From Nemertoderma westbladi (lineage: Eukaryota; Animalia; Xenacoelomorpha): 48,519 bases of DNA. This document shows, piece after piece, positions 5,697 to 36,187 of this stretch; the first letter of the stretch is position 1, and every line of letters begins with the position of its first letter. Below the pieces are notes generated by a model. That model was not told the origin of the DNA and did not search any database. It worked only from the letters and a program-made list of their open reading frames with translations. Both the position numbers and the translations under genes were made by a program. The stretch is from positions 1-48,519 of the forward strand of contig JAUCBJ010008923.1 of assembly GCA_032718475.1 (NCBI GenBank), written 5' to 3'.

Positions 5697-5840
5697 TGAT
5701 GAATTATTTCACTATAAGATAGCATTTGTAGTTTAACTTTAACGTAAAAACTTTCGAAAATCCGACGCATTTTGATTAAGTTACAGTAATGTAATATTGC
5801 CTATTCATATTTGTACACATAAGGCCCCTAGTTACTCTCG

Positions 5841-5904
5841 TGGCGTAGTGGTCAGATGGTTAAGGCGTTGGTTACATTACAGATAGTTTACGTGTTCGAA
5901 TCCC
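5841..5904 (+). promoter_or_regulatory. tRNA-like Pol III internal promoter (A box + B box) in the LTR
   Basis: A box TGGCGTAGTGG (5841-5851) and B box GTTCGAATCC (5894-5903); both recognisable in all three LTRs. Confidence 0.6.
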
Positions 5905-5989
5905 GGTCGGGAAATTTGTATTTTGGGACCATTTATTTTCATTTGGTGCAAATTGGTGGACCAATGAGACGCGTACAACGTATCGAATT

Positions 5990-6250
5990 ATGAGCCAGGC
6001 CAATCATAGGGCATAGAATATCTTATTGCTCAAATGTGAGGCTATGGAAAATTCTGTTAGGATTCCGTGTCCCAGATTAGTGTAAGGGCCGGTTTGCATT
6101 GAACGATGAGCTGGGCCAATCATAGGGCATAGAGCATCTCATTGCTCAAATGTGAAGCTGTGGAAAATTCTGTTTGGTTTCCATGTACGATTTTAGTATA
6201 TAAGGATTGGTTTGCCTTCGGTTATCACCTTCACCTTCACCTTCACTTCT
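5990..6250 (+). promoter_or_regulatory. LTR U3 Pol II promoter: duplicated ~116-bp CCAAT-containing unit, TATA box, pyrimidine-rich initiator
   Basis: Two copies of ATGAGC.GGCCAATCATAGGGCATAG...GGAAAATTCTGTT (5990, 6106); TATATAAG at ~6197 followed ~30 nt later by TCACCTTCAC repeats. The TATA word is degenerate in copy 2. Confidence 0.6.
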
Positions 6251-6560
6251 ACTTGTTAACCTAGTACACCTTACTTATATTAGTTTATTTTGTTTCTTGT
6301 TGAAACTTTGGTAAATCTGCTTGATAATCTTTGCTCGAATCTAAACTGTAAATATACTGCAAACTCCTGAACATGTTTACTTTTGGTCCAACCTTGGGAC
6401 AGCCAAACATCGGGAAGATGGCAGCCTAGACAGTTAGGCCGTTAGCAACGCAGGAAAGGGATGTCCACAACACGCTAGCGCCCACATAAGTTTGACCGCA
6501 CACCCCCTTCGCCCTTCGAAATACTCCGACTTGCCATGCAGCGCCTGCTTTATGAGGAAG

Positions 6561-6740
6561 GTAAGACTTTGTTCGACGCCCTTGCCCGACGTAAGACCTA
6601 TAGATCAGGGTAAGCGTGATGCCGTCCTGGGACGCCGCAAAATTTAGGATCAAATAATTATATTCCAGGCAGAAACCCCCCCCCCCCCCCCCTTTTCTTG
6701 TCAGCCCTGCAAATCCCTGGGTTACCTGTGTACCTCACAG
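6561..6740 (+). other. Predicted small spliceosomal intron inside the LTR
   Basis: Donor AAG|GTAAGA at 6561 (alternatives at 6591 and 6610), poly-C/pyrimidine tract 6676-6700, acceptor TACCTCACAG|G at 6740; donor and acceptor conserved in all three LTRs. Confidence 0.5.
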
Positions 6741-8049
6741 GTGCGAGCAATTGCCGTTCGTCAGTATGCAAGTACATATTAGGTACGGACAGCATACGTT
6801 CCATAATTTAGTGATTTGTTAGTACTGACTGTTTGGTACCGGTTCGCTTTGTGAACATACATTAGTACCCCCCCCCCCCCCCCCCCCCTCCTACCTGGAG
6901 TTAGTTATTTGATCAGGCAAGGAGTATTTCTGCTACCGGCACACCGCTTGGCCTAGGGAGGTTTTATTAATATCCTACCGCGCCTTGCCACGTACTGATA
7001 GGTATTTGCTGCTAACTACCGCAGCAACAAAGTTCAAGAATCAAATTTGTATACCACATCAGCTAACGTACGGTAGCAATTAACCCCTATTTCTTATCTT
7101 ACAACCAGAATCTGGTATTTGTGCCGATCACGGGTGTAGTTACTAACGCCGTGGTTGCCCAGTTGAGTTGTGGATAGGAAGGAGAGAGCTTTGACGTCAT
7201 TTGTGAGTATAAAGTTCTACAAACGCGACGAGTTTATTTTAGTAGCTAGCGCACGGTATTATTTCAGTCACAGAAAATCACTAAAACCTAGTGAAATGAT
7301 ATACACCAAAATTGTTTTATTTGTAACACACCCACACACACGCGCCCTAAAACATATTTACCCTTAGAGAGAGTTCCTACTAGGTAGCGCACTTTAGATT
7401 TTAGGCAGAATTTATCTGTATTCGTAGAATTAGGATCTGATATTTAGTTACGGCAAGGGAGTATTTCATTATTTTGTTATTAAACTGTTGTTTTCAGCTC
7501 AGCAGTATTGTCACGTTAGGCACGACCCTTTTAGACTGATTTCGTACAGGGGGATCAGTTATTGTTACATTAGGCACGACCTTTTTTAGGCTGATTCAGA
7601 CAGGGAGATCAGTATTGTTACGCTAGGGCTGTAACCCACCTAGCTTGTATATAAACCATATAAATCACACCGCGGCAAGTTACGGTATTTTAGGGCTGTC
7701 AGCGATAGTTAGGATTCGCTGCGCGGGGATTGTTTTCCCGTGAGTTTGGTCTGTTACTGTAACTGTACATCTGCCATACCGGTTAGAGGACAGGTATCCT
7801 TTTGTCTAGTTTGTAGGCATTAGACCCGCTCACGTACATAGAATAGACACTATTGTATCTGTTTGTTTAGATATCCTGGACTGGGATTTGTTGTCAGATA
7901 CTGTACGAGCCCGTTTCATTACTAGAGTCTCATAGTAAGATACATCGTTACTAGGATCTGGTAAGCGGTATACTACTGGACATATTCTATAGCTTCTTAT
8001 TAGTAGATTTGTAGGCCGTAGGGTAGTCCCTACCGTAGGGGACACCACA

Positions 8050-8059
8050 GTGAGGTATA
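8050..8059 (+). promoter_or_regulatory. Non-tRNA primer-binding site candidate GTGAGGTATA
   Basis: Directly follows the LTR-terminal CA; lacks TGG; reverse complement of LTR-internal TATACCTCAC (24240-24249; 6729-6738 with one G.U pair). Confidence 0.6.
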
Positions 8060-8898
8060 TTTATTAAATATCTCGACCGGAAGTGCGTGCGCATTTTAAG
8101 GTATTAACTATTGTATTTAGCTATTGTAAGTAGGAGATATTTAAGATTTTAATAGTAGTAAAATTTGTAATTTGTAGAACGTCCCCTGCTTCAGTAGGCT
8201 TTTAGGGTAGCTAGTAGTTTCGTATTTAACATTTGACTAGCTAATAGTGAGTTTGTAGCAATTTGTTTTACACCGTGTGTGTGCGGTGTTACTTTTCGGT
8301 ACTTGAAAAGGTACATAGGGTTTAGAGACCAAATTGTATCGGTACCTAGGAAGAATTTTTGTAGAGTAGAAGTAAAACTCTCACCTTCGACTTTTCAGGA
8401 CTCAAGGACTCATTTCTGGACCGCTTTGAGGATTAGACCGCTTTTCGCAATGTTTGGGAGACACAAAATTCGTCCGCGCCGCCGAAAAACGGAATGACCC
8501 ACATCCGGTTTGTATTTGGGAATTTGTATGACTGGAAGATCAAAGGAGCGTAAGTTTTACGACTCGTGTCGTTTTAAACTTAGAAAGCACAGTAGTACTC
8601 AAAATTTGTGGGTTTCACTGTCTGATTAGTAGTGTTGTTGGTACATATTTTTCCCGTTAGACGTTGCTGTTTTGCCTATTATTTGTACTTGTTGATCTAC
8701 ATTTTGGTAACGTATACCGTTATCTCACTTATTCGTACAAATTTAGCCGGTAGGCTAGATTATTACTTATTTTATTATATATTTTGTTAGTTTATTTGTA
8801 CCGGTTAGGGTATATATATGATATATATATATCAAGGTAAGTTTGACATTTGGACATTTTGACATTTTATTACCCGTACTTGACGTATATAATAAGAC

Positions 8899-11800
8899 AT
8901 GAGTGACACACCACATTCGACGCGATACCCCCCTATCGACTATGACTCGTGCGACCCGGACAGATTGACAGTAGACGAACCGAGAAGGAGAACCCGAGAT
9001 TCCACCGATGTCACACCGTGTGCGTCGCCGGTACCCCGAACGGAAATACCGGAAGCCGCAGTGCGTGGCCACGGCAGAATCGAAGATTTCCTTACCGTCC
9101 CGCAGACTAGATCGTGGGAACCGGACATGGTAAGTTCGAATGGAAGCCAGGAGAACGTTATTAGAAGTATAGGAGGACACATGGCCCAGATTACTCAAAA
9201 CCTCGGAGAAGGTTTTTGCATTTTACGCGAGTTAACCACCGCGATGTTGAGATACGAGTTCTATACCTTACAGGTGAGGATAGAAAGTACGGTACATGCT
9301 TCCGTAGATGAACTTAAAGGTTTACACGAACTTGCAGAGTTGCGTGGCGACAACTTTACTCAGGTAAAGATAATAGATAAGTTAGTAAGTGCAAGAGAAA
9401 GTATTGTTCAGTTTAAGTCAGTAATAAGATTGGCTCAACAGGAGCAGTTTGACCAAATGCTAGGTGAGTCAGTTTCAGACGCGTTGTTACAACCCGAAGA
9501 GGAAGAAGAACTATACTGCCTGGACGGGAGGTTAGGGACGCTCACCAATTTTCTTCGTAGATGCGGCATACCGATCGAAGAACCGGAAGTCGAACCGCGA
9601 GGGACGACGGAAGTTCTCACTACGGAAGGCTTGCGAGCCTACCATATTCCACCCATGGATAGATCGTTCGTTAGCATGCGGAGTGACGCTGGCGACGTTA
9701 GTAGAACAGCATCTGTTATTACTCGACAACAACAGGAAGTTGCACGCCGACAACAAGTTGCCGAGGAAGAAGCGCAATGACAGATGGCACAGATCGCTAT
9801 CGAGGGAGAGAGACAACGTAGAGAAGACGAAGCAAGAATTGCGCAACTCAAAGCGCAAGCCGAATTTGAGGCTTCGGAGATGCGTAGATTGGAGGAAGAC
9901 TTAGCGCGAGAAGCAGCCGCGGCAGCAGCAACCGACGAGTTAGCACGACGGGTAGCAACTGACGAGTTAACACGAGTTGCAGCAGCTGACGAGTTAGCAC
10001 GGCAGAAGGCGGCCTCTGACGCACATGCTCAGTTGGAGGCACGGCAATTAAAATCATGTTTAGCCATACAGGAAGCAGAACTAGCGGCACAACAACAAGT
10101 AGCGGATCGACGCGAAAGGGAGATGCAGCTACAGTTCGAATTTAATTGTAGATCGCGTGAGGCAGCGAACGCGCAAGAGGACCTCAAACTCGACGCGAGA
10201 GATAGATCTATAAGATCCCGAGCCGGACATGACTTGTCTGCTCTGAATCGTTTCGAAGCTCGATATCGCGGAATTCAGAAGCGTATCGAGGAAGGAAGTG
10301 TGGGAGCGATAGATAGAGGAGAGGAGTTCGTCGAGGATTACTGTAAACGTTTTCCCCAAGTTATTCCTATGCTTAAACCCACGACTCCGATAAAACCGGT
10401 CTTTGTCACGAAACCTAAGGAAATAACGCCCGTGCGCTCGACGCAAGGTAACAGGTTTGTTGTGACAGAAATACCGCAACCTAGGGCAACTTCATCGCCA
10501 ATTTTAGCAGGTAACATAACTAGTCCACCTACAGTAAGTTGTAGTCTACTTGTAGGAAGGGAGGAACCTGCATTTATGTCAATTAAAAAGCAAAGTAAGC
10601 AGTTAAACCTGTGACGTGCTGTGCGAACCCAGTTATTTATAGACCGACTACGAAACCCGATTACTTTACTCAACCTTTGACACAATGTTAGACGCGACCT
10701 ACGACTTCGTGGAAGGCTTGCGAGCCTACCGAACAACGGAGGAGGACGGATGTGGGTAGTACCCACAGGATCGAACCATGTTTAACGAGACCTACGACTT
10801 TGTGGAAGGCTTGTGAGCCTACCGAACGACGGAGAACCGTAGATCCCAGAACGCAACGAATGCGACCAAGAATAATACACCGTACGCGAACCCGCCAACC
10901 ACCTTATCCGGACGACAGCGACTCATCTAGTGACTCGGAGTCGACAGAACGGGAAGTATTCCATACTGGAGCGGCAGCAGCGGCGACGGATTGCAAATGA
11001 GAGGAACGATCGACGAACCAATTCGTCAACAACCCACCACGAGAAACACCCATTCGGAAACCCACGTTGCGACCAGCGGAAACGATCCGCACCAAACAGT
11101 TCACCGAGATGACGGACCGACTAGCTCAACTCGAAGAACTACTTGAAGCGCAACCGTCGGACCGATCACGAACCAGCATGGAGTTGGAACAACCTAGACA
11201 ACATCAACCACCAAGGAGAGAACAGGAGACTAGACAGACTCCGACCCATCGAGAAGAAGATCCCGTTAATAATTCCTACCGACGAACAACGTGCGGAAGG
11301 GAACGACTAGACGACGCTACCGAACAGGGACGCGGACAGTTGGATTTGGTTAGCAAGATTGCGAAATTCGCGGCTAGACTCGGATTACCGGCACAGCAAC
11401 TGCCGAAGTTCTCTGGCAACGCGAAACACTGGCGTACACTGGTAGACTACATCGAGCCCCAGATCGCTAAGTGTGCTTTCACCTCGATGGAGAAGTTTAA
11501 TTACTTGCTCCAAGTCCTGTCTGGTGAGCCAAAACGATTAGCGGAAACCTTTATCGGTGTTCCAGATGCCTTTGAGTTGGCGTACGACCGTTTGTATTCG
11601 ATTTACGGCGGTGACGTGGCCATGGCTAAATCCATTATAGAAGACCTCTGCAGAGGAGGCAATATTTCGAAACCGATCGACCTTTTACGACTCGCGGACG
11701 AAATAAAGAACGCTATAGGGACTTTACGGTCCATAGGACAACTCGAATACGCTAACGCACCGACAGTTCTCATTAGGATAATCGGTCGACTTCACCATCG

Positions 11801-12341
11801 ACTCCGACGAGAATGGCGACGCATCGAGTACCGGCGTGAAGAAGCCGGCGGGCTTTTGAAACTCACCGACGTCTACCAACTGATTTCACGGGAGGCCGTG
11901 ATTGAGACTCGATCGAACTATACCGAACACCATATCGCGGCAGAAGGGATAGCTATTTCTGCACCGACTCGGACCAAACCATTTCTGACGAACGCAAAAG
12001 CCGTTACCTACGCCACCCCTACTGAGACTTCTAAAGTTCTGACGCCTATCGGCACCACACAGCCACAACAACAGTTGCCAGCGGACTTTGTGGGATGCTT
12101 GTACTGTAAGCAGAACGGCAGAAACTATAGCGGACATAAACTTTGTGGGTGTTGTGCTTTTAAGGAGTTAGGAATCGAAGAGCAGAGACTCCAGATTCGA
12201 TCGTTAGATTCCTGCTGGAGATGTATGAAGCCAGGACACGTCCGGAAGGATTGCCCGAGCGACGATACATGTCCTCAGTATGGACGTAACCACGACGCGT
12301 TACTCCACACAACGAGTCATACTCCGACCAAACGCTTTTGA
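8899..12341 (+). pseudogene. gag: BEL/Pao Gag region (coiled-coil N-terminus, DUF1759-like core, three Cys/His knuckles), disrupted
   Basis: LPKFSGNAKHW...EKFNYLLQVLSGEP...AYDRLYSIYG; CLYC..H..C, CWRCMKPGHVRKDC, CPQYGRNHDALLH; in-frame stops at 9778 and 10612 and a frameshift before 11067. Confidence 0.92.
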
Positions 12342-15300
12342 CGAGAGTATCCAGATAAAGCGGCTAGATGCGACGCGCTTTACAAGGAGCGTGCGCCGCG
12401 CGAGATTCATACTTTCTACGTGGATTGTATGGATCAATCGGGATCATCGGACGAGGACGAGGAGGAAGACGACACATTTTATGTGCATGCGGGTGAGGAA
12501 CAGCCATCGATAACGCTCCTCACACAGAACCAATTGAAAGGGTTTAGCGTGATTTCTATAAAGATTACCGGAACCCGAGGGAGCAAGCGTATATACGCTA
12601 TCTTAGACTCTGCGTCATCGCATAGTTATGTTGACGAACAAGTAGCCGACGTAGTTACGGACATGAGTCAAGGTAAGACTGCTCAGTATACTGTAAGCAG
12701 CATGCATGGTAAGAGAGTGATTCCTGTGACTAGAGTAAAACTAACCTTAGACACTCTTCTTTCCAAAGCGGAACACAGCAAGGACGAGCACTCATTACTT
12801 CCGGTAATAAATTTGACCTTTGCAGCTACGAAGGACTTTAGTAACTTGCTTGGCCCTGTGCCAGAGCAATCACCGGAAGATCGTAAGTATTTCCGACACC
12901 TTGGAATACCGGAATGTCCTGTCAATTATCGTTCAATTGCGATGTTAATTGGGACAGACCAGTTTAACTTACATCAGGTATGGGAGACACGCCCATCTGT
13001 TATTACAGCGGGCAACCCCTAAGCATGTAGAACTCCCATAGGTTGGTATACTAGAGCACCAATACGTTCACTAAAGGTAAGTGACCAGGAGGACGACGTT
13101 TTGAGTACGTGTAGTTTATTGACTAACACGATTGATAATTCTCCTTCACACTCCTGTGGTCCAATTGTACAGACGGCATTATGACAGACTTGCGTCGCTA
13201 ACGCAGACACCACCGATACTGACGTAACTGATCTGGACACGACCACACGGACCTCTATCTTACAACTACTTGCAGTAAACCAGGTTGTATTGACTACTGA
13301 AGACCAAAGGGTTGTTGCTGTGGATGACTCGATGCACGAGGGTTTTGGAAGGCTTGCGAGCCTACCGTAAAATCCGAAGGTCATTGACCCCACCCATCAG
13401 GCTTCGACACCGGTCGTTGATATTGGAAGGCTTGCGAGCCTACCGACAGATCAAGAGGTTGTCAAACCGCCGCACGACGATTCGACGCCGACTAGTGACA
13501 CTGGAAGGCTTGCGAGCCTACCAGACATATTGACACTAGCCACCGCAGTGGACGAAGACGTGGACGAGGACCATGGCGCAGTGCAAGCAGCGCTTGACTG
13601 ACTGCTGACTGAACGGACCATCAATGGTTGGACCGCTATGTCAGGACAGGAAAAACGGTCATTAAATATTATGAGAGATACCATTCACCAGACCGCGAAT
13701 GGCCACTACGAGGTTGGCATGTTGTGGCGCAATGGACAACCTAAGCTAGTTAACAATTACCCGCTTGCTTTGAGGCGACTCAAATCAATAAGGCAGCGAT
13801 TGTTGCGAGACGAGACGGCCCATATGCAATACAATGCACAACTTCAGACGTATCTCCAAAAGGGATACGCCATTAGGATGTTAAATCCCGAGGTAACCAC
13901 AGATTAGACATATTACCTGCCACATCATTTTGTTCGACACCCGGACAAACCTGGCAAGGTGCGTGTAGTCAACGACTGTGCCACGCTTTACCAAGGAATG
14001 TCTATGAACAGCGAACTGATGGACGGGCCGAATATTAATAACTACCTCATGGGAGTCCTAATGCGTTTTAGACAACGCAAAGTGGCTTTCACCTGTGACG
14101 TAGAGGCCATGTTTCACCAGGTTAAGGCTTTGGAGCGGGACAGGGACAGCTTGAGGTTTCTTTGGTATCTGGACGGAAATTTAGAACTTCCGCCAGAAAC
14201 TTACCAAATGCAGGTAAGAGTTTTCGGAGCCAGGGACAGCCCCAACTGCACCATGTACGCCTTAAAGCAGACCGCATTAGACAGACAAGACCAATTTGAC
14301 CCAGAAGTAGTTCGGACTGTGGAACGAGATTTCTACATGGATGATGGCCTCAAGAGTTGTGACGCCTTGGAGCGCGCTACAACTGTAGCCCACCAACTCC
14401 AGGATTGTCTCGCTGAGGGCGGATTTCACCTGACGAAGTTTGCTTCTAACGAACCCGAACTGGGGAACTCATTTGACCCGATGGATCGTAGTGGAGGTGA
14501 CCTAGACTTAGACCTAGAACCTCTACCGACGACCAAAGTATTAGGACTTAGTTGGGACCCTAACACCGACAATTTTAGGGTACGTGTAAGGTCCAACGAC
14601 CAGATTAGACATCTCACTAAGAGGACTTGCTTATCGACCATGAGTCGATTGTATGACCCATTGTGTTTCATTAGTCCAGTGATCCTACATGCTAGGATCA
14701 TACTCTGCAGCATTTGGCAAGCCGGTCTGGAATGGGACGATCCCATCCCAGAAAAGTTAGCTGAGCAATGGAAGGACTGAGAAGCCCAACTGACGTTCCT
14801 ACAAGACTATACCATACCAAGGGTATACTTTCCTTTGCAGACCACCTTTCCTGCCGATTTAGAGCTTCACAGCTTTAGTGACGCTAGCAAGGATGGATTG
14901 GGGGTTACATTATACCTTAGACGACAAGTGACATCGGACAGCTACGATGTATCTCTCGTTACTTCTAGGGCTAGAACAATGCCGTTGAAGTATATGACTG
15001 TACCTCGTGGAGAACTGCAAGCCGGGACGATATCCACCGATATTGTCAGTCTAGTTCAACGCGAGCTGTAGGCTAACTTGAAGGTCACATATTGGACGGA
15101 TGCGACGTTGGTACTTTGGTACATAAACAACGAAGCGTTTGAGTTCAAGACTTTCGTAGCCAACAGATGGGCTGAAATCTTGCTCAAACAAGATTGGCGT
15201 CACTGTCCAGGGAAGCTGAACCCAGCTGACATCGCGTCACGGGGAATACAACCGCTTGACTTTTGTAAACCGGACAATAAATCCTTTTGGTTTAGAGGAT

Positions 15301-17755
15301 CCGATTTCCTACAGCGACCATCAGACAAAGGCCACTGTTATTCGACGTGACAACCAATACCATACCAGAGGGTGCCGAGATAAAAATCGACAAGGTTGTC
15401 AAATCAAAAGCGAAAGCCAACGCCAAGGTCAAGAGGAAACAAGGACGGACGAAATCTGATGACCTGGACGCTAGACCTGACATTACGCCAGACGTCTCAC
15501 CAGAATCTCGACCAGACGCTTGTACGAATCTTTCACCGGATGTTCCGCGGGAGATTTCACCAGACGTTTCTCCTGATTGTTCACCAGATTACTCGCCAGA
15601 TTCACCAGAAGCGACACCAGATTGTTCTCCGGATTGTTTGCCAGATTGTTTTATGGAACTCTCGACAGATTGTCTACTGGACGTCTCACCAGACTTTCCA
15701 CCAGACATCTCGACAGACTGTCCACCAGATTTTAGACCAGACTTTAGACCAGACTTTCTGACAGAAATTACGCTAGACACCTTTTGGGACCGACGACAGG
15801 ACATTTCGCCGGATGTTCCGCGCTATGTCTCACTAGACGTCTCACCAGACTGTTCACCAGACGTTTCACCAGACTGTCTACTAGACACTCCATTAGAAGA
15901 CCCATTGGAGCGGACTTTTAGAAATTTACCAAATTTGACTTCTTTGGACGACAAAGGTGTGGCCACAGCGATCACACTTCGCTCAAAGAAAGTACTTGAC
16001 TTACCACATACAGGTAAATGTTTGACTAAGGTTAGGAAAATTACAGGCTCACAGGAACACACTAACACTGTAGAGTTGACACCGTTACTGCCAGTCGACT
16101 CACTAGGAGCAGACGGTAAAGGTAAGACCGTGGAGATTGACATACTTGGGGACTCAGACAACCCTACCGGAAGGCCCGTGGGCCTACCAAGTCCAGACAA
16201 GTATCCACACTACGACTATACCTTACCTGATGACGTCACTAACACTTACGTTGACCGGATAGTAAACCTAACTAGATCATGGACTGACGCGTGCCGCAAG
16301 TTAGCATGGCTCAAACGTTTGAGACAATATGCCAGAGGCAAACGCGACTTTCCTAGAAGACTTACCTTAGAGGAAGTTGACCATTGTGAAGTTGATATCA
16401 TTCTCCATTATCAATTGCGATATTTCGCACGAGAATTCACAGCGATCAAACAAGGTAAACAGATCAAGTCTTCACCGATTTTGAGTTGGAGTCCGATTAT
16501 TTATCGGGGCTTACTTTGTCACAAGTCCAGACTCCAGAACATCAACTTTGCACTTGACTTCAGGTATCCTATCATCATACCGCAACACCATGAGTTACAG
16601 CGCGCTATGATACTGGACGCACATGTACAACTCAAACACGTGGGTAGACATCACTGTTTGTCACATTTACGATCGAGGTTTGTACTGATTAGGCCTAGCA
16701 AGGCACTGAGTTTGGTAACACGGAACTGTATGATTTGTAAGAAGGTGCATGCGAGGATAGGACACCAAGAAATGAGTGAACTACCACTAGCAAGATTACA
16801 GGCATTTAGACCCCCTTTCACTGAGACAGGGATAGACTGTTTTGGACCTATAATCGCGAAACGCGGAAGGGTACAGGTAAAACGTTGGGGATTGATCTTC
16901 ACTTGCATGGCCTGCAGAGCTGTCCATATAGAGCGTGTGACAGATTTGACCACCAATGCCTTTATCCTAGCCTTACGGCAATTTATCGCTAGACGTGGAT
17001 TGGTCAAATCCATTTATTGCGACCAAGGGACAAACTTTGTGGGTGCACGGAACGAAATAACCAGAGCTTTAAAGAAATTGGACCAAAACCAGATTTCCGA
17101 GGAACTACGTCCTCACCGTATTGTTTGTAATTTTAATACTCCAGACAGTCCGTGGAGAGGCGGAGTTTGGGAAAGGCTGATTGGCTCAATCAAGACAGCC
17201 ATGGCAAAAGTAATCCCAACGCAACACATATTGACAGACGACCAACTGTCGACGTTACTAATAGAAATCGAAGCGACTTTGAACACTAGACCAATCGCTT
17301 TGAACCCAGACAATAACGACGTACAGTTTGCCTTGACACCAGCGCACCTGCTTATGCAGGCGCCAATGACATTGTTGCCCATTTCGGTACCCGTTAATAG
17401 CGACGGATACGGCAACAAGGCTTGGAAAATCACTCAACTATTAGCAAATAAATTCTGGGAAATATGGCAGAAATATTATTTGCCCTCTATTTCATCCAGA
17501 ACAAATTGGTATCATAATACCCGATGTTTGAGACGTGGTGACCACGTTTTATTGGCTGAAGACAATCTGAAAAGACGGTTTTGGCTGACCGGAGTCATTT
17601 TGACCACACACCCTACATCTGGTGTAATAAGGACAGTTACTGTACGGACTATCGACGGACGTACCGTAGATAGGCCTGTACAACGTCTCGTACTCCTAGA
17701 GGAGACTAGAAACGAGACAGGAGACTACAAATCTCCACCCAATATTAGTAAATAA
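12342..17755 (+). pseudogene. pol: BEL/Pao Pol region: aspartic protease, RT, RNase H, integrase, DUF5641-like C-terminus, disrupted
   Basis: AILDSAS protease; YLPHH, DVEAMFHQV, FYMDD (RT); FSDAS, PRGEL, WTDA, NPADIASRG (RNase H); HHCC, GIDCFGP, DQGT, GVWE (integrase); FWEIWQKYYL. Same frame as late Gag until a frameshift near 15340; several stops. Confidence 0.95.
15475..15885 (+). repeat. In-frame 12-bp minisatellite encoding (S/R)PD(C/V/F) repeats between RNase H and integrase
   Basis: Degenerate TCACCAGACTGT units; protein PDVSPDCSPDYSPD... Confidence 0.85.
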
Positions 17756-18477
17756 GATGTGGTACCCTTGATGGCCACCACATAGACTTACCATATTTTA
17801 GTCATTTTGTATTACTGTATGTGCATTTGTAATCCTCTTCACTGTAGATAGAGACAGCGGTGGAATTCCATGTCTTTATATGTGAACATGGAGGGTAGTA
17901 CCCTTATGTATCACATAGGAGCGGGATTGTGTGTGTACAGTAGGAATGGAATTCTACTTAGAACCCACAATTGAGACAATTTTTCAAAAATTATTAGACA
18001 AATCCATTCAGTTGGATTTAAATTTAAGAAAAATGATTCTCCAGTGAATACGAATTCTAGAATACAGCTAGATAAAAATTAAAATTGGGGAGGACAAGAG
18101 CGGATGGAAGGCTTGCAAGCCTACCGATAAATTTTTTTTGGAAAACAAAATCGGCCTTGTTCTACGTAGTCGTGTCTACTATTATTTAGACCAAATTAAT
18201 TCTCGACTGCATTATTTTCTTAGGAATGTAGTTTGGGAAATTAAAAGGTGAGTATTTTAGACTCGCGGCTAGTTTACCCGGAATTCGTTTTTTATCGGCA
18301 CAATTTTTTGGATTAGGAGCCAGTGCGAAATCACACAAACCCGAAGTCATTAGGCAAATGGGTTGGGGTTTTAGAGCAAAGTTGAGCCAAAAGCTGACAA
18401 ACTCTAAGTCACCTCACATCTAACCTCTATTTTGTGCTTCATCTAGTAGCAACGTAACGATATGTAACCATATATAT

Positions 18478-19167
18478 GTGTATACGATGGCGGAGAAGAT
18501 GAATAAGGAGTTACGTCAAGAGTTTACGCAGGAACAAGAGGCGCCATTCAATCGTTATGGAGCTAAAAACTTTAGTGTGTTTGGAGTGGAGAGTATGGCC
18601 AGAAGTACGGCCAAGCTCGCTAAATCCAAGGCGGACCCGAATGTTACGCGACAGCGGTTGGACGTGTATAACAAAAGAACGGAGGAGATACGCGCAGAGT
18701 TTAATGCGTTATATCCCTACGATGCATTATGCGATGCTAGTGACATTTGCGAGGATCCAGACACCGAGATGCGCCGATTGTATCATACGCTGCAATACTT
18801 GACGGTAGATGAACCCTTACCTGCAGCCAGGGATGAATTCGAAGGAATGTATCTTTATAGACACGCTCGTGGAGTGGATCCAGAGACAAAGGACGCGTTT
18901 TCCATATACATACTGTTTTACAAATGTGGAGCATGTATGCGTGAGCAAGATAACGCGATTCCTATGAGATTGAACTCGGAGAACCCCGAGCCAATATTAG
19001 CGCGATGCTCATACCACCAAAGTCTGCGTTACCAAGAAGGCGGATACCCTTTGACGAATCCGTACCATTTGTTTAAAATGAGTGGACCGAACGCGGGTGA
19101 GATCGTTATTAACGAACCCAGATTAGTCGAAACCAGACGTCTACAGCATGGTAGTGGACGAGTCTAA
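18478..19167 (+). CDS. BEL 3' accessory ORF A, unknown function (CxxC...CxxH possible Zn site)
   Basis: 229-aa open frame downstream of integrase; YKCGAC...RCSYH; overlaps the next ORF. Confidence 0.6.
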   Translation: MYTMAEKMNKELRQEFTQEQEAPFNRYGAKNFSVFGVESMARSTAKLAKSKADPNVTRQRLDVYNKRTEEIRAEFNALYPYDALCDASDICEDPDTEMRRLYHTLQYLTVDEPLPAARDEFEGMYLYRHARGVDPETKDAFSIYILFYKCGACMREQDNAIPMRLNSENPEPILARCSYHQSLRYQEGGYPLTNPYHLFKMSGPNAGEIVINEPRLVETRRLQHGSGRV

Positions 19168-20710
19168 TAAGTCGACACGAGAGAAACGGGAAGCTCTGAG
19201 CCTCTACAGGGCGTACAAGGCGTACGAGAAAGGCGAGATCGAGGAGTTTGGCGGAAGGCTCGCGAGCCTACCATTCTATTGGATATCCCACGATCAAACC
19301 AAACCTAAGGAGATGACACCCGAGCTCCTCGATAGTATCACCTTTGCTCAGCGTTTGTTGCAGAGACTACAGATACCTCATGTCGAGATGACGCGAGAAC
19401 CTCAGCCCCATTCTGCTGGAGCGATAGTACCGGTTGCGAGACCAACTAACTTTCCTATTAGTATACCGACCCGGAAGGAGACAACTTACGAGATTCCTAT
19501 AGTTGAACACCCGGAGATCATTTCGAACCTGGATTTCCTCCCATCGGTTACCTTCGGTGATGTGTTAGAGTCAGCCGAGTTACGTAAAACAATAGTTCAA
19601 AAAATCGTACGCAACGTGCCTCCACACATTACGGACTTTAAGGAAGTGGATCGAGTGGGGACGGATATCGCACCTTGCATCTTACGAGGATATCTGACTA
19701 GAACGATTCGATTATGGATCGGAGTTGGAACGTTTGAGACCGACACCAATATCGCGACCAATTGGACTGGTAAACCTATTAGTTTTGATGATGAAAAGTC
19801 AATTGGGAGAATTTGGAACCCTACCGACGATTTACTCGACGATTGGGATGTGACTAGCCGATCTCTAAAGGAGAATTGTTATATGTTTTACGACAATGAA
19901 GGAGGAAGCCATGAGCAAAGCCTCACTTCGAAAACTATACAGATTAGAGCACCAGACGGCGTGTTACATGTCTTCAGCCGACATAGGAGTGATAGAAAGA
20001 TGCCTATGCCGGAAGGAACGACGCAAAGACACGCGATGATAAAACGGATAGTTAAATCCATGGACCTGGCTTGTAGCATAGAAGCTAGGATGTTGCCAAA
20101 GGCCGTGCGAGACGTTGTGTTAGACAAGAGCATCGTCAAGATCGGATCCGGTGTACGGGATGACCTTATTAGCGATTTTGCGGGAATTGTCACGGAAGAG
20201 GATCAATTGCCTACGCCATACGTGGATACTAGACCATTGTTGCTTTGAGCTATTGAGCAAGGATATTTTAGGGAGTATAACACGCTAAAAACTGGGATGG
20301 GTTATATCTCATATCTAATGTTTAGTTGGGATTATAAGGAGAGTAAGAGGAGCAAGTACACGGACGTATACGGAGAGGGAGATACCCCCGGCGTAAACGA
20401 GTTCGAGTCACAGTTGAAGTGGCGAGGTTGCGTGTATTGGGCGATTAATTCACCTCCACGAATAATCTTGCAATACTATTTAGCGATAGAATCTTCGGTC
20501 AACGTTTGTTTCATCGCCGACGTAGTATCTAGAACCCTAAAGCGACATCCGTTATGTCTCGGTGAAGAACACACCTTTTACGATGGAGGAAGGACGCATA
20601 CTGATGTATTCCGACGATTTCTCCAACCCTTTTATAACACCGATGCGCACTGCAAAGTTTTCACGCGAGCGTTTTCAGGGACGTCTATCTCACTCACGCG
20701 GGAATCCTAG
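19148..20710 (+). pseudogene. BEL 3' accessory ORF B: WRN/EXD-like DEDDy 3'-5' exonuclease (one in-frame TGA at 20246)
   Basis: ExoI MFYDNEG...TIQI; ExoII LPKAVRDVVLDKSIVKIGSGVRDD; YVDTRPL...KTGMGYIS; ExoIII-like W...QYYLAIE. ORFs 19148 and 20297 are in the same frame. Confidence 0.75.
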
Positions 20711-20724
20711 TCGACAGACCATCG

Positions 20725-21441
20725 ATGTTAACGTTAGTACCGTATGACGGGGAACGCCACGCGGAATTCAAAGGCCCGGAAGGATCCTGGAAGGCTCGCG
20801 AGCCTACCGCCCATCACTACGATGTGGATCCGGCCGAGTTTGCGATGATAGACGAACCGTTGCAGCAACTCATAGAGATAGAGGAGAACCTTCCGAGGAA
20901 GACGCGAACTGAGATACGCGAGTTGGAGAAAAGCGATGCCATGGTTTGTGTACAACCTACGGAGACGAACATACCGACTGACCCGGATGATGAGAATTAT
21001 CACGTGGACGGTAGCGCTCGCCCCATCGGAGATCTCATCTATGAGCGAGTTTGGTACCCTGCCAACACTATTTGTGGCAGATGCGGGGCAACTGGCCACC
21101 ACGCAAAGAAATGCGGAGCGAAGCACATATCTCTACTGGACTTGGTATGTAACTGGTGCGGGGATCAACGTTCACACACTTTCTACACTTGCTGGCGTTT
21201 TGTGGCGCAGTGCACGTATTGTAATATTAAGGGCCATAGGGCATCCGAATGTCAACTTAAAGACGTCCTCTATGAGCACATGTCAGTTAAAATCGTTCGA
21301 CAGCTATTGGGAGGATCTAGCAGACGAGCATGTATCTACGCAGCGACGCCGTTTCCCTATGAGAGCACATTTGGGATTTTGGGCCGTAAACCCTCTCATA
21401 ATGTCGAAGGAAGGATACGTATCGGCTATGCCTCAGTATGA
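20725..21441 (+). CDS. BEL 3' accessory ORF C: triple CCHC zinc-knuckle protein
   Basis: CGRCGATGHHAKKC, CNWCGDQRSHTFYTC, CTYCNIKGHRASEC at 21073-21252. Confidence 0.8.
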   Translation: MLTLVPYDGERHAEFKGPEGSWKAREPTAHHYDVDPAEFAMIDEPLQQLIEIEENLPRKTRTEIRELEKSDAMVCVQPTETNIPTDPDDENYHVDGSARPIGDLIYERVWYPANTICGRCGATGHHAKKCGAKHISLLDLVCNWCGDQRSHTFYTCWRFVAQCTYCNIKGHRASECQLKDVLYEHMSVKIVRQLLGGSSRRACIYAATPFPYESTFGILGRKPSHNVEGRIRIGYASV

Positions 21442-22220
21442 TGAATTGTTGGAGGTGCTGGATATATTGCCTTTGGATAGCGGATTTATGGTTGTGCGGG
21501 ACTACTTTCTACAGGTACACCCCGACAACAAGAATACTTGGAACTTTCAAACTGTTGTGAACAAGATTACCGCCGGGGAATTCGACAAATTGCGAGTTGA
21601 ACAGCGCAATCGAGGAGCCTGGCATTCGATAGCTTGGGCATACCGGAGCGCATTTTATCACAAACGTGTAACCTCGTATATTCTAGACGAGACTGACGTT
21701 TTGTGTGAGACTGGCTTCAAGGCCACACCGTTAGCAGAAAGGACGCGTCACCCACAGGATGATTAGCAATTTCGTATACTCAAAGCCCAACAGGCCGGAC
21801 AAGAGATAAAGAAGGTAGTAAATGTTGCCGAGAGGATGACATCAAAGTCGCAAATCCGGATGACTCGGGGCACAGTTTCCCTTGCCAGAGAACCACGCGG
21901 AGGGACAGGATACGCTTTGCCGGAACCCTTTAGGATTCAAACAACGTCAGAGAGCGAGGTGTCAGCGGACGGAATAGTCCCACCATTTTGACTTCCTCCC
22001 AGCATTGTAGAGACTCGATCCGATGTTAAGTCGACGATTGGAATCGGACGAGGATTTAGAGGATTGAGCGCACGACGGATGTGCGAAACTCCCGTCGTCC
22101 CATTTCCTAGCGTTTTGGAACCACCGACAACTCGACGCCGAAGTCCAAGCCCAGTTCGACCTCGACCACCACCCAATCGCACTAGAGGATGTGGACGAGC
22201 CCGCTCATCGAAGGAATAGA
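21428..22220 (+). pseudogene. BEL 3' accessory ORF D (or frameshifted continuation of C), with Pro/Arg-rich tail
   Basis: MPQYDELLEVLD... frame reads on past stops at 21764 and ~21989 with coding-like composition. Confidence 0.4.
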
Positions 22221-22896: not shown

Positions 22897-23022
22897 TGAT
22901 GAATTATTTCACTATAAGATAGCATTTGTAGTGTAACTTTAATGTAAAAACTTTCGAAAATCCGACGCATTTTGATTAAGTTACAGTAATGTAATATTGC
23001 CTATTCATATTTGTACACATAA

Positions 23023-23329
23023 AGTAAAGTAAAGTAAAGTAAAGTAAAAGTAAATTTTCTTCGGCCGCTAGGCCAGGGATTATGCACAAAGTCTGACGAC
23101 TTATTTCCAGTGCGGTCCCCCCAGAACTTTACTCCCCAGAGGAAACTCCAGTACTCATTTAGCTACCACTTAAGGATGCAAGGCAGAGATGCGCCCTGGC
23201 TGGTCCCTTTAAAGCATTCGTGCCGAAACGAAAACTGCCCTGGCCCATGTGAGGATCGAACCCACGACCTATGGGAGATGTGAATTCAATGCGACCACTA
23301 CACCAAGGTGGAACCTTAGTTACGCTCCC
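23023..23329 (-). mobile_element. tRNA-derived SINE with (TTTAC)n tail
   Basis: Absent from the other two LTRs; minus strand has A box TGGTGTAGTGG and B box GGTTCGATCC; (AAAGT)n on plus strand at 23021-23054; TAA duplicated at the flanks. Confidence 0.85.
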
Positions 23330-25006
23330 TAAGGCCCCTAGTTATTCTCGTGGCAGAGTGGTCAGATGGTTAAGGCGTTGGTTACATTACAGATAGGTTA
23401 CGTGTTCGAATCCCGGTCGGGAAATTTGTATTTTGGGGCCATTTATTTTCATTTGGTGCAGATTGGTGGACCAATGAGACGCGTACAATGTATCGAACGA
23501 TGAGCCAGGCCAATCATAGGGCATAGAATATCTTATTGCTCAAATGTGAGGCTATGGAAAATTCTGTTAGGATTCCGTGTCCCAGATTAGTGTAAGGGCC
23601 GGTTTGCATTGAACGATGAGCTGGGCCAATCATAGGGCATAGAGCATCTCATTGCTCAAATGTGAAGCTGTGGAAAATTCTGTTTGGTTTCCATGTACGA
23701 TTTTAGTATATAAGGGCTGGTTTGCCTTCGGTTATCACCTTCAACTTCACCTTCACTTCTACTTGTTAACCTAGTACACCTTACTTATATTAGTTTATTT
23801 TGTTTCTTGTTGAAACTTTGGTAAATCTGCTTGATAATCTTTGCTCGAATCTAAACTGTAAATATACTGCAAACTCCTGAACATGTTTACTTTTGGTCCA
23901 ACCTTGGGACAGCCAAACATCGGGAAGATGGCAGCCTAGACAGTTAGGCCGTCAGCAACGCAGAGAAGGGATGTCCACAACATGCTAGCGCCCACATAAG
24001 TTTGACTGCACACCCCCTTCGCCCTTTGAAATACTCCAACTTGCCATGCAGCGCCCGCTTTATGAGGAAGGTAAGACTTTGTTCGACGCCCTTGCCCGAC
24101 GTAAGACCTATAGATCAGGGTAAGCGTGATGCCGTCCTGGGACGCCGCAAAATTTAGGATCAAATAATTATATTCCAGGCAGAAACCCCCCCCCCCCCCC
24201 CCCTTTTCTTGTCAGCCCTGCAAATCCCTGGGTTACCTGTATACCTCACAGGTGCGAGCTATTGCCGTTCGTCAGTACGCAAGTACATATTAGGTACGGA
24301 CAGCATACGTTCCATAATTTAGTGATTTGTTAGTACTGACTGTTTGGTACCGGTTCGCTTTGTGAACATACATTAGTACCCCCCCCCCCCCCCCCCCCCT
24401 CCTACCTGGAGTTAGTTATTTGATCAGGCAAGGAGTATTTCTGCTACCGGCACACCGCTTGGCCTAGGGAGGTTTTATTAATATCCTACCGCGCCTTGCC
24501 ATGTACTGATAGGTATTTGCTGCTAACTACCGCAGCAACAAAGTTCTAGAATCAAATTTGTATACCAGATCAGCTAACGTACGGTAGCAATTAACCCCTA
24601 TTTCTTATCTTACAACCAGAATCTGGTATTTGTGCCGATCACGGGTGTAGTTACTAACACTGTGGTTGCCCGGTTGAGTTGTGGATAGGAAGGAGAGAGC
24701 TTTGACGTCATTTGTAAGTATAAAGTTCTACAAACGCGACTAGTTTATTTTAGTAGCTAGCGCACGGTATTATTTCAGTCAGAAAATCACTAAAACCTAG
24801 TAAAATGATATACACCAAAATTGTTTTATTTGTAACACACCCACACACACACGCCCTAAAACATATTTACCCTTAGAGTTCCTACTAGATAGCGCACTTT
24901 AGATTTTAGGCAGAATTTATCTGTATTCGTAGAATTAGGATCTGATATTTAGTTACGGCAACGGCAAGGGAGTATTTCATTATTTTGTTATTAAACTGTT
25001 GTTTTC

Positions 25007-25879
25007 TACCGTGGCTCATTGCGGCCACATTTGAATTTTTCTTTTTTTTTTTAAAAAAAAAAGTACACCTAATTATTCAGACAAATATTTAGCTGTACTT
25101 TTTTTTTCTTCAAAAAAAAAAAAAATACACCTAATTATTCAGACAAATATTTAGCTGTACTTTTTTTTTCTTCAAAAAAAAAAAAATACACCTAATTATT
25201 CTGACAAATAATTTGGAGTATTTCTTTTTTTCTTTCTAAAAAAAAATACTCCTAATTAATTAATATATGTTATTGGAGGGAATTTTAAACAGGTACCTGT
25301 GGATAGCATGACCGGTACCCGGTACGAACGGTAGGGTACTCTGCTCTGCTGCTACTACTGTACTACTGCTACTACAGTACTACACTTCAGCACTTAGGCA
25401 GCTTAGCCTAAGCACGTCAGAACTGCGAAATGGCGTCAGATTCTGACGATTTTGATACTGTTGGACCTAATCCTAGTAGAAAGAGGAAACTACTCGCTGA
25501 TGTAAGACGTGATTGTTATCTTCAAATAAACAAGCTATATCAAATCTGAAATCTGCCAGGTTGAACAGCCTGATGATGATGCTGATATGCATACCGCTAC
25601 CGGTAGGCCTAACCTTATTGGCATTCCGACGCGACCGACTTCTGCCGGGAATCGATGCCGGGATACTCCAAATTATTTGTCAGAATAATTAGATGTATTT
25701 TTTTTTAGATAAAAAAAAAAGAAATATATACTCCAAATTATTTGTCAGAATAATTAGGTGTATTTTATTTTTTTTGAAGAAAAAAAAAGTACAGCTAAAT
25801 ATTTGTCTGAATAATTAGGTGTACTTTTTTTTTTAGAAAAAAAAGAAAAATTCAAATGTGGCCGCAATCAGCCACGGTA
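25007..25879. mobile_element. MITE / internally deleted DNA transposon with long structured TIRs
   Basis: TACCGTGGCT(C/G)ATTGCGGCCACATTTGAATTTTTC TIRs, mirrored ~59-bp subterminal repeats, duplication GTTTTC (25001-25006, 25880-25885); empty site in the 5' LTR near 7490. Confidence 0.92.
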
Positions 25880-26502
25880 GTTTTCTGCTCAGCAGTATTG
25901 TTGCGTTAGGCACGACCCTTTTAGACTGATTTCGTACAGGGGGATCAGTTATTGTTACATTAGGCACGACCTTTTTTAGGCTGATTCAGATAGGGAGATC
26001 AGTATTGTTACGCTAGGGCTGTAACCCACCTAGCTCGTATATAATATAAACCATATAAATCACACCGCGGCAAGTTACGGTATTTTAGGACTGTCAGCGA
26101 TAGTTAGGATTCGCTGCGCGGGGATTGTTTTCCCGTGAGTTTGGTCTGTTACTGTAAATACTGTTACTGTTACTGCCATACCGGTTAGAGGACAGGTATC
26201 CTTTTGTCTAGTTCGTAGGCATTAGACCCGCTCACGTTCATAGAATAGACACCAGGCTCTGCTCCTCGCCAGTAGTAGTTTTGTGTATTGTATCTGTTTG
26301 TTTAGATATCCTGGACTGGGATTTGTTGTCAGATACTGTACGAGCCCGTTTCATTACTAGAGTCTCATAGTAAGATACATCGTTACTAGGATCTGGTAAG
26401 CGGTATACTACTGGACCCTACGGTTAGAGATATTCTATTGCTTCTTATTAGTAGATTTGTAGGCCGTAGGGTAGTCCCTACCGTAGGGGACACCACAACA
26501 TT

Positions 26503-28189: not shown

Positions 28190-31100
28190 ATGATATCGAT
28201 CTGGACCCAAAATGCCTTGAGCGTTTTCTCCTTAAGAAGCTGAATTTAACGGAAGGATTAACAGTCGAGATGCTGAAGACTCGTTACGATACGTATAGTT
28301 CGGTCAAGGTTGAGTTGCTGAGTTCGGAGCCTCAGGTTCTCATGAATCCTGAGATCTGGCCGAGCGGAGCTCTGGTTAAGGAGTTCGTCGGAGGAAACCG
28401 ACGTCGCCCCGCTGCTGTAGATCCTGAAGTTCTCAAGGTCTGAAACTGAAAGTCTCGGTGATAAGCCTATAAGTTGAGTTTTTGAAGGTTTTTTTAGTAT
28501 GGAAGTCACCTCATTCAATTGTAATGGATTGTTTGATAGTAGGAATCGGGGCTACCTTAAACCAACTGTAGTTGATCTATTTGATCGTTATGATATTGTG
28601 TGTCTACAGGAGACTTGGTTTAGCAAACAGGACTTATCTCGATTAAATACTTTGCATCCTGGGCTGCACGGGACTGGGGTTGCAGTTACAGATTACGGTA
28701 GTGGTGTTCATCATGGGAGGAACAAAGGCGGAGTAGCGATTTTTTGGAAATCACAGTACGATAATTACATACAACCTTTATCATTCGATTACGATTGGCT
28801 ATGTGCAATAGAAATCAATATTGATAATCATAAATTTGTTTTCATAAATGTGTATCTGCCATTTGAACACCGCGATAATGAGGCGGATTTTCTGTTTAAG
28901 TTGGGTACAATACATAATCTTATTGATGAATTGGGAACTAGCACGACTTTTATTATAGGAGATTTTAACTCTGATATATCTGATGATAAATCATTGTTTG
29001 GTAAACACCTTATTGAGTTTTGTAGTGACACGGACTTAATTTTGTCGAGTAAACAGTTTATTAACTCAGGATTTACATATGTTGATAGTTACTGGGGCTC
29101 AGTATCGTGGCTTGACCACTGCCTGTGCACAGCTGATGCTCACAGTGCTATTACACGCCTAAACATTTTGTATGATGATTCACGTGGTGTGGATCATATT
29201 CCGTTTGACCTTGGTTTAAATGTATCTGCGGTGCCTTCTGTAAATTTTTTTAACAGTGATGACTCTGTATGCAGCACCGGACGTAAATTTAATTGGAGTA
29301 GAGCTAATAAAAAAGATATAGATAATTTTTGTGAGCAAACGGCGCTTAAATTAGATAAGCTCTCCTCGTGTACTGGCGATTATATTCTATGTAAAGACAT
29401 TAACTGTACAGATAGTGATCATATATCTAATTTAGAAAATTTTTATGAATCGGTTATTTCTGCCTTACATGAATCCGAACACACTAATGGTTCTAGAACA
29501 AATAGTAAAAATATCATTCCTGGGTGGAATGATCTGATTAGGCAACATTATGATGCATCTCGCGATACATTCTCTCTGTGGCGTGAGGCGGGACGACCCC
29601 GATCTGGCCCAATTTTCGATCTGAAAAGGCGAGCGGACTTGCGTTTTAAATACGCTGTCCGTGCAGCCAAAAATAACGAAAACAAAATTCGTTGCGAAAT
29701 GTTAGCTAAAAAACTGTCTGGTAAAAATACTCGTGACTTTTGGAAAGAAATTAAAAAAATTAACAATTGTAATACTCCATTACCAACTTCGATTGATGGT
29801 ACTACAGGTACTGCAGAGATTGCTGAGATGTGGCGTAAACATTATTATGATCTTTTTAATTGTTTAAAGCGCACAACCAATAATTTACACTGTTCCGATA
29901 ATATTAATTACGAAGATATGTGTGTTAGTGCTGAGGAGGTTCGTAGTAATATTGAGTCTTTATCAAATAATAAATCTTGTGGTTTAGACGGCATATTTGC
30001 AGAACATTTAAAGTACAGTAGCAGTATACTATATGAAATTTTAGCAACTTTATTTACGAGTTTCTTTGTTCATGGTTATCTTCCTAATAACTTAATATCT
30101 GTTATATTGGTGCCGATAATTAAAGATAAAACAGCTAAAATTAACAGTAAAGATAATTACAGACCGATAGCGTTAGCAAGCATCATTTCAAAGGTAATGG
30201 AAAAAATAATACTGCATAGGATAGAACCTAATCTAAAAACAACGCATAATCAATTTGGTTTTAAAAGTAAATTAGGTACCGATATGTGCATATTTTCCCT
30301 GAAAGAAATGATATACAAATACAGACAGTTACAATCTACTATGTTTGTCACTTTCTTGGACGCCTCTAAGGCATTTGATAGAATAAACCATGATGTGCTT
30401 TTTGGTACTCTAATTAAACGGGGGGTTCCCCAATATATAGTGCGATTAATAATTTTCTGGTATGTTCATCAAACATTCTGTGTTAGGTGGGGCCCAAATG
30501 TTTCAGCTTCTTTCACCGTTTCTAACGGAGTAAGACAGGGTGGAATACTGAGCCCTTTCCTATTTAACATTTATATGAATATATTATCTACTAAATTAAA
30601 TAGCTGCAATATAGGGTGTCTTATGTATCATACATTATGCAATAATATTTTGTATGCTGATGATTTAGTTTTATTGTCTCCGTCTGTAAAAGGTATGCAA
30701 AAACTGCTGAAATTGTGCTCTGAGTTTGGAGACGAATATGATGTAATTTTCAACGCAACAAAAAGTGCTACTTTATATATTCGATCAAAATCTCAAATAT
30801 CGTGGAATTTTCCTTCATTTAAAATAGGCAATATTACTCTTCCAATCAAAAAAGAATATAAATATTTAGGACATTATATTACCAATACACTATCTGATGA
30901 TAGAGATATTTTACGACAACGTAGGAAACTATATATGCAGGCAAATAGTTTGAAACGCAGATTTTTTATGTGTTCAAATGATATTAAGCAACGTTTATTT
31001 CAATCCTATTGTACGCCGATGTATACAGCTCACTTATGGTGCAATTATACTAAAACTGTATATAATAAATTTACAACATCATATAATAATACATTTCGAA

Positions 31101-35162: not shown

Positions 35163-36187
35163 TAATGATAGTAGTATAAGAAACTAGTACACGGCATCAA
35201 GATCACCCGTAGCCCATCATTACCATCCATTTCTGGTACACCATCCAATCAGAAGCCACCATTCCAACCTTTTGCTGTGGTCGTTATTATTTCAACCAAT
35301 CAGATGTCAGCATTTCATTCGAAACCATGGTAACTTCTCAAGTTCCCGCTTATTCCGCTAGAGGCGTTATTAGTCACCCATCGCTAGTACTCCGTCCAAT
35401 CACCAACCTTTATTTTACAGACGCTAGGGGTGTCTACACTTAGCATCAGGTAACGTCTACTATTTTTCAAATCGCAATTTATCACCAACCTTTATTTTAC
35501 AGACGCTAGAGGTGTCTACAGGTAACTTCTACTATTTTTCATTTCGTTATTTTTCAGCAACCAGTATTTTCATATTCACCAACCTTTATTTTACAGACGC
35601 TAGGGGTGTCTACAGGTAACTTCTACTATTTTTCACCAGTAACTAAATTTAATTTTGCAATTTTTTTAGATAACAAAATATTCAACAGGGTTCGAACTCG
35701 GGACTGTTATAACTCCTTACAACTCGCCACTCACTCCCCCATCCAGCCTCGAGAGAAAAAGGCAATAAATATCCGAGTTATGCCGTAGCTATTGAATTCT
35801 TCATCTTCAACTCTGGTGGTAGATGTTTATAAATAGCATCTAGTTCCTTAACATAATTACTATAGCATAGAATACATTAATTCGACTATTAATAATAATC
35901 GATTTCTTTTATCGATGTAACTGGTCGGTCAACTAAGTTGAATATAAGTTAGAATGACAGGGCTAGCATTGATCACGTTGCATCTGTTACTCGTTACTGC
36001 TATTTCACTCTCTAACTCACGCTAATGTAATAAATATAGCTGTACACGTTGCATCTGTTACACGAAGCTACTATATTCCTCACTGTAAGTCACTCTGCTG
36101 TATTAAAGCAACCATATAAACAGAAGTTTTACAATCTAATAATCATTTATTTAGTTTTTATTTTTCAAAATAGTTTTCATTCTAATT

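Follow-up and report, generated by a model that had tools for sequence, protein, structure and literature searches.

A BEL/Pao retrotransposon of Nemertoderma westbladi with a predicted self-primer in an LTR hairpin

The window, which is the whole 48,519-nucleotide stretch of Nemertoderma westbladi DNA analysed here, contains one defective BEL/Pao LTR retrotransposon (element 1, 5697-26497, with a 5-bp target duplication) and the beginning of a second copy. We propose that this element probably primes reverse transcription with a hairpin-loop segment of its own LTR RNA, freed by a nuclease cut after AC, the nuclease probably being the element's own RNase H. A sequence-only reading had already taken the segment to be primer-like and element-encoded. 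Co-variation between the copies in the window and the same arrangement in 25 distinct relatives uphold that part of the reading, and the identification of the segment as an element-encoded primer is well supported as a prediction.

Results

Elements in the window

Element 1 is bounded by a 5' LTR (LTR1, 5697-8049, 2353 bp, TG...CA) and a 3' LTR (LTR2, 22897-26497) that carries two later insertions. ACATT stands before the 5' LTR and is repeated past the 3' LTR. The second copy (element 2) begins at 44252; only its 5' end is in the window, its 3' LTR lying beyond, and the 3' end of its 5' LTR (LTR3, 44252-46532) is an inferred one. The LTRs, coding regions, motifs and primer-related features of the two elements given below are on the plus strand. 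With the two later insertions set aside, LTR1 and LTR2 are 98% identical, and LTR3 is 91.6% identical to the element 1 LTRs over aligned positions. The insertions occupy 23023-23329 and 25006-25880; the latter is MITE-like, with long inverted repeats at its ends. Where the LTRs end and the leaders begin, the two copies are non-homologous (7982-8049 against 46526-46532), element 1 having about 65 additional bases with G/C hairpins. A contig from run X1 that carries 24 of the 31 listed LTR3 variant letters extends 7 letters beyond the divergence point of the LTRs and stops at the position of the LTR3 CA.

The gag-pol region of element 1 (8896-17755) is of BEL/Pao type and is fragmented by stop codons and shifts of frame. 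Its domains follow the BEL/Pao order, with Pfam matches to DUF1759 (E 2.7e-9), Peptidase_A17 (E 2.8e-14) and DUF5641 (E 3e-19), and the assignment to BEL/Pao also takes in the TG...CA LTRs, the short target duplication, the Pao-type Gag, the RT-RNase H and an integrase placed after the RT. The RT reaches no more than 49% identity to Pao proteins, and in the RT tree it forms a long branch that could not be placed. No relatives were found among viral contigs. Within pol, 15463-15909 is a degenerate 12-bp tandem array that gives PD-rich repeats when translated.

After pol lies an extra, broken ORF region (18424-21766, about 1000 codons) with a weak zinc-knuckle match. By eye it contains motifs that we take to be exonuclease-like (DEDDy). 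Searches among longer proteins, PDB sequences, 1.84 billion representatives and Pfam returned no homologues; the Atlas gave weak RdRP-like features (0.91, 131 of 256 shared), which serve as a lead only, and the predicted structure model has a pLDDT of 29.5. Outside the elements, 28478-31369 is an ORF of a non-LTR retrotransposon with endonuclease and RT domains, and 36155-41806 holds AT-rich ORFs. The stretch 37775-41806 presumably resembles, in two pieces and as judged by eye, a Polinton-type family B DNA polymerase; neither Pfam nor PDB returned a significant match to it.

Primer-binding sites and the matching LTR segment

The primer-binding site of element 1 (8050-8059, GTGAGGTATA) directly follows the terminal CA of LTR1 and is not of tRNA type, and that of element 2 (46533-46542, GTAGGAAGTA) directly follows the terminal CA of LTR3. 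Both open with GT and not with the TGG of tRNA-type sites. ARAGORN found no tRNA genes in the window, and Rfam gave two chance-level matches only. The complement of each site is a 10-nt slot within the LTR, at 6729-6738 in LTR1 (the predicted self-primer of element 1, ending in AC), at 24240-24249 in LTR2 and at 45262-45271 in LTR3 (the predicted primer of element 2). Complementarity had been claimed for all three LTRs; it is complete, 10/10, between the LTR2 slot and site 1 and between the LTR3 slot and site 2, but the LTR1 slot forms only nine Watson-Crick pairs and one G:U with site 1.

Shuffling the two sites produced a 10-nt complement at any position of the LTR in 29 and 14 of 1000 trials, respectively. 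Both real complements fall on the same slot with offset 0, and such a double hit is far less likely. Slot and site also co-vary between the copies, in a comparison of two copies only, one of them with an inferred LTR end: the cognate duplexes have energies of -13.4 and -13.2 kcal/mol, and the swapped ones -5.4 and -2.7 kcal/mol. Separately, a conserved segment (6349-6358 and 44901-44910) can pair over 9 nt with the distal portion of either primer site; 67 of 1000 shuffles reached this as well, and the match is possibly chance.

The slot is made up of the 7-nt loop and three stem bases of a hairpin, ACCTGT-N7-ACAGGT (6724-6742), whose stem includes the AG of 6739-6740. This hairpin starts at 6724, 24235 and 45257 in the three LTRs, and LTR1 has no other perfect 6-bp stem with a 7-nt loop. 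The hairpin of element 2 (45257-45275) has the same stem and a different loop. Compared with LTR3, the loop differs at 5 of 7 positions in LTR2 and at 6 of 7 in LTR1, against an LTR identity of 91.6%. In folds of 310-320 nt the AG of 6739-6740 is paired with a probability of 0.97-1.0, so that the hairpin alone can account for its conservation. Display of the primer in a loop is not a general pattern among the relatives described below. The arm past the hairpin can pair with U5 (6741-6756 with 7984-8000; 24252-24267 with 26432-26448); one position is mismatched within each LTR and matched across the two, which is probably a coincidence.

Predicted transcript

The predicted promoter (5961-6230) contains three CCAAT boxes (5961, 6000 and 6116), kept in all three LTRs, and a TATA-like TATATAAG at 6197-6204 that is altered in LTR3. 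Transcription is predicted to start near 6225-6230. A candidate poly(A) signal, ATTAAA (7479-7484), is found in all three LTRs, and the poly(A) site is predicted near 7500. With a start at about 6227 and a poly(A) site at about 7500, the primer would lie in R, roughly 500 nt from the cap. The U3 of all three LTRs also has a tRNA-like A-box and B-box (5836-5915 in LTR1), seen by eye and called neither by ARAGORN nor by Rfam.

Primers of related elements

Relatives were collected by RT alignment in a scan of metagenome contigs, and the best 80 of 520 related loci listed there, with RTs 41-48% identical to that of the window, were analysed. At this identity, and with the element on a long, unplaced branch, carrying the mechanism over from the relatives is an extrapolation. 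At 13 of the 80 loci both LTR copies diverge at CA, which fixes the primer site without recourse to its complement; 54 others were scanned blind, and 11 loci with too little upstream sequence and two more were left aside. A TGG/tRNA-type site was seen in none of the 13 relatives with readable LTR ends. At 11 of these loci, which represent 10 distinct elements, 10-15 nt of the site can pair with the junction left when a GT-AG intron is taken out of the LTR (0-3 of 300 shuffles), and at the remaining two there is an unbroken 10-mer complement (0 and 2 of 300 shuffles). In the blind scan, 14 of the 54 loci had a junction match of at least 11 nt, against 0 under the null, three had an unbroken match of 12 nt or longer, against 0.3 under the null, and 29 had no match of any kind. 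The primer ends in AC in ten, and in AT in two, of the 12 distinct elements whose ends were fixed independently; the blind scan demanded a site starting with GT or AT, so that its primer ends are fixed by design.

After duplicate loci (L010, L011, L014, L031, L047, L060, L072 and L078) and unbroken matches judged to be chance (L005, L006, L016, L045 and L055) were omitted, 25 distinct relatives were counted. Nineteen are of the junction type (L002, L009, L019, L021, L022, L030, L036, L038, L039, L042, L044, L046, L059, L063, L065, L071, L073, L076 and L080), and six have an unbroken self-primer of 10-12 nt (L034, L051, L056, L061, L068 and L069). In the 19 junction-type elements, whose GT-AG introns measure 75-351 nt, the site matches only the exon-exon junction and the primer end lies 3-7 nt into exon 2. 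Splicing thus builds the sequence of these primers but cannot make their 3' end, and a cut is required. Judged by its own slot and sites, the present element is of the unbroken type. In the RT tree the unbroken types fall into two supported groups and are intermixed with junction types, which suggests repeated loss or gain of the intron. The spacer between terminal CA and site is 0-4 nt in the relatives. In six of the nine that have no spacer, the base after the primer is mismatched and the one beyond it is a G pairing with the C of CA, as in the AC-A-G of this element; the G of the AG at 6740 is therefore a feature of the group, and only the A is particular to this element.

Splice motifs in the LTR

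A cluster of three splice-donor motifs (6561-6615, at 6561, 6591 and 6610) is kept in all three LTRs. AAG/GTAAGA occurs at 6561, 24071 and 45110, AGG/GTAAGC at 6610, 24120 and 45159, and GAC/GTAAGA at 6591; the consensus donors reported earlier at 6561, 45110 and 6610 are thus present and conserved. Three GTAAG within 50 nt were found in 5 of 2000 dinucleotide shuffles, and a GTRAG at a distance of 60-200 nt before a given point in 481 of 2000, which is chance level. Since the cluster is rare and conserved, an intron probably begins there, and a start at 6561-6610 is plausible. The upstream donors are likely the sign of an LTR intron shared with the relatives, by which the primer here is no longer split.

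The sequence-only reading went further and identified the 3'-OH of the primer with the 3' end of this intron: splicing from 6561, 6591 or 6610 to 6740 would free the intron, and its tail minus AG would prime reverse transcription. Much of what it described was found. Besides the rare and conserved donors, CAG/GT closes the segment in all three LTRs (6738-6742 in LTR1), pyrimidines fill 5-6 of the 7 positions in both loop variants, the predicted introns of 180, 150 and 131 nt match the length of 130-180 nt that had been given, and the A of the AG does form an A:A mismatch with the A of the LTR-terminal CA. LTR introns are moreover linked to the primer in the 19 junction-type relatives. The extra ORF is exonuclease-like by eye, and DEDDy ORF3s are described in rotifer LTR elements, Juno and Vesta (PMC5408684), to which the extra ORF after pol was likened by eye only; the description consulted here mentions no part of that ORF3 in priming.

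The acceptor argues against this reading. The segment does lie downstream of a poly-C/T tract (about 6677-6700), as had been noted, but the tract is closed by an AG of its own at 6704 (AAG at 45236 in LTR3), 36-37 nt before the 6740 acceptor, and is thus not the tract of AG 6740. The competing acceptor candidates (6650-6704) are this terminal CAG at 6704 and a CAG at 6668 that is present in all three LTRs. An acceptor model, which is T-rich and derives from other hosts, was built from the 19 LTR introns of the relatives. With it, AG 6740 and its homologues scored -0.1, -0.8 and 1.8 (ranks 41/152, 71/222 and 18/141), and 17 of the 19 acceptors of the relatives, each left out in turn, scored at least 9.0. 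The AGs at 6704 and 6668 also scored low (-0.9 and 1.2), leaving no clear acceptor in the vicinity. Of the 149 AC dinucleotides in LTR1, 10 have AG next and 4 have AGG, both at chance level. In the low-depth contigs of run X1 (RNA is a guess, share 0.07), 6120-6542, the slot and the site lack usable cover; these contigs contain no splice joint, which speaks neither for nor against the reading.

The relatives and the handling of the intron tell against an intron tail as well. No relative among the 25 has AG directly after the primer (the commonest next two bases are CG, in 10 of 25), and in 19 of them the primer stops within exon 2; two of the six unbroken types have an AG no more than 6 nt away, about as expected by chance. 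The weak acceptor is also base-paired and stands behind competing AGs. Two bases would have to be trimmed from the tail, for which the exonuclease is only putative, and the lariat would have to survive, although lariats are described as generally debranched and degraded (PMC12238851). Splicing would also deprive the 5' R of the primer segment, whose inheritance would then need early strand transfer or priming in trans. We consider it unlikely that splicing to 6740 makes the primer. The fuller scenario, in which the lineage would have moved its primer into the intron tail, with the spliceosome giving the 3'-OH, an element exonuclease trimming two bases and the loop acting as a family-specific key, is likewise unlikely. 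An enzyme cut is the more likely source of the primer end than a spliced-out intron, and the stem-loop cut by a nuclease, which had been offered as the alternative, fits better.

A primer assembled across a splice junction was also considered for this element and was rejected, as no splice junction fits both sites. For site 1, the best Watson-Crick junction covering its start is 8 nt long and has poor donors, and site 2 gives a junction match of 11 nt only with a GC donor and an AAG acceptor. A 15-nt junction via 7267 that contains G:U pairs was discarded because it rests on a GC donor and on a 2-nt duplication unique to LTR1. In element 2, TCCTAC at 45237-45242, after the AAG of the tract, matches the first six positions of site 2, as exon-2 heads do in the relatives. 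No good donor completing this junction was found; the segment is possibly a relic of a junction primer.

Discussion

We favour a cut within the LTR RNA, by which a transcript starting near 6227 would carry its primer internally in R, about 500 nt from the cap. The loop would nucleate pairing with the site 1.3 kb downstream and the stem would open. The resulting duplex would close at AC; beyond a single mismatched base, the C of the terminal CA would pair with a G. A cut at 6738/6739 would release the 3'-OH, making trimming unnecessary. By analogy with Tf1, whose self-primer is freed by RNase H, the cutting nuclease here is likely an RNase H. Strong-stop DNA would stop at the cut and transfer to the 3' R, so that the primer segment would be copied from the 3' LTR and inherited. 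Were the primer copied in plus-strand synthesis, the site would be rewritten to match it, and the co-variation of slot and site would be accounted for. Counter to this proposal, relatives show no rule of loop display, and the local co-folds of LTR1 and LTR3, two of the three made, favour the hairpin over the primer duplex; only the LTR2 slot gave a Tf1-like multi-duplex fold with U5, and the three-duplex pretzel fold was seen in one of three cognate co-folds.

With the classical geometry of Tf1, transcription would start at about 6729, the RNA would begin with the primer, and the donors would lie in U3 and be irrelevant. This would agree with the arrangement in Tf1, Tj1 and Tosmo and with the multi-duplex fold of the LTR2 slot and U5. 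No TATA or initiator motif was found around 6700-6729, however, and the CCAAT and TATA motifs indicate a start at about 6227. The junction-type relatives, in addition, require an exon 1 upstream of the primer end. Such a geometry is improbable here.

The pairing might instead be structural, serving dimerisation, packaging or translation control, with a host RNA as the primer. Kissing-loop signals have a variable loop on a fixed stem, and the loop here likewise varies on a constant stem. The partner, however, directly follows the terminal CA, which is the obligatory place of the primer site, and the relatives are alike in this, with a spacer of 0-4 nt and a constant AC/AT end. We judge a purely structural role to be quite improbable.

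Least probable of all, and by our estimate very much so, is that CAG/GTGCGA acts as a donor, cleaved by a first-step-only spliceosomal reaction, or as a trans-splicing acceptor, giving an RNA end at 6740 from which two bases would be trimmed: AG/GT suits both types of site, spliceosomal cleavage is described as forming the 3' end of fission-yeast telomerase RNA (PMC4299874) and the donor version is free of the inheritance problem, but as a donor the site scores 0.9 (rank 53/163), it lies in a stem, and trimming would be required as well.

The favoured mechanism, a cut that frees an LTR-encoded primer, works like Tf1 self-priming, yet outside the Tf1/sushi group. Self-priming of the Tf1 type through cleavage of the 5' LTR RNA is treated as established in the accounts cited here (PMC4600332, PMC6317226), which place the primer at the RNA 5' end within a three-duplex fold (PMC4600332; bioRxiv 10.1101/2022.12.06.519325). 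Three primer types are distinguished, with self-priming in Tf1/sushi and Tcn1 and its prediction in TAR (PMC6317226), and self-priming has been put forward as a hypothetical ancestral state (PMC3601003). As far as these accounts describe them, Tf1 and Tf2 of Schizosaccharomyces pombe, Tj1, Tosmo1-3 and the Tf1/sushi and Tcn1 groups resemble the present element in having no tRNA site. By the same descriptions, their own LTR RNA can pair with the site that follows the terminal CA, as in the present element, and a cut is needed to free the primer, as is predicted here. They are, however, Ty3/gypsy chromoviruses, whereas the present element is BEL/Pao by its Pao-specific Pfam families. The Tf1 primer is at the 5' end, while here it is predicted to be internal, in a hairpin loop, and the pretzel is not clearly conserved. 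The BEL/Pao relatives differ further from the Tf1 group in assembling the primer across a splice junction.

Self-priming outside Tf1/sushi, as here, is described as predicted for the TAR lineage (Houba, Osr-1) of plant Ty1/copia elements (PMC6317226), which belongs to another superfamily and another kingdom, and for which the description consulted here mentions no intron. Achilles, a tRNA-primed BEL/Pao element, shares with the present one the superfamily, TG...CA LTRs and ATTAAA in place of AATAAA, according to its description (PMC4580426). The 18-nt tRNA-Tyr site reported there (PMC4580426) is absent from the present element and from the 13 relatives with readable ends. The 19 junction-primer BEL/Pao loci are like the present element in their self-complementary site, a primer ending in AC, LTR donors upstream of the primer end and a poly(A) hexamer downstream; their LTRs measure 0.2-0.65 kb, whereas the LTR here is 2.3 kb and the primer is unbroken. 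A survey of titles and abstract openings, mostly of papers outside the subscription journals, turned up no literature on BEL/Pao self-priming or on primers made by splicing.

The contribution of the present element is a fast-changing primer shown on a hairpin, with its partner site changing along with it. If the proposal is true, self-priming would gain a third superfamily, through a large BEL/Pao group with an internal primer segment. The primer would be made by splicing in some lineages and be unbroken in others, tying retrotransposition to host splicing, and the group would offer a natural series for studying the loss or gain of tRNA priming.
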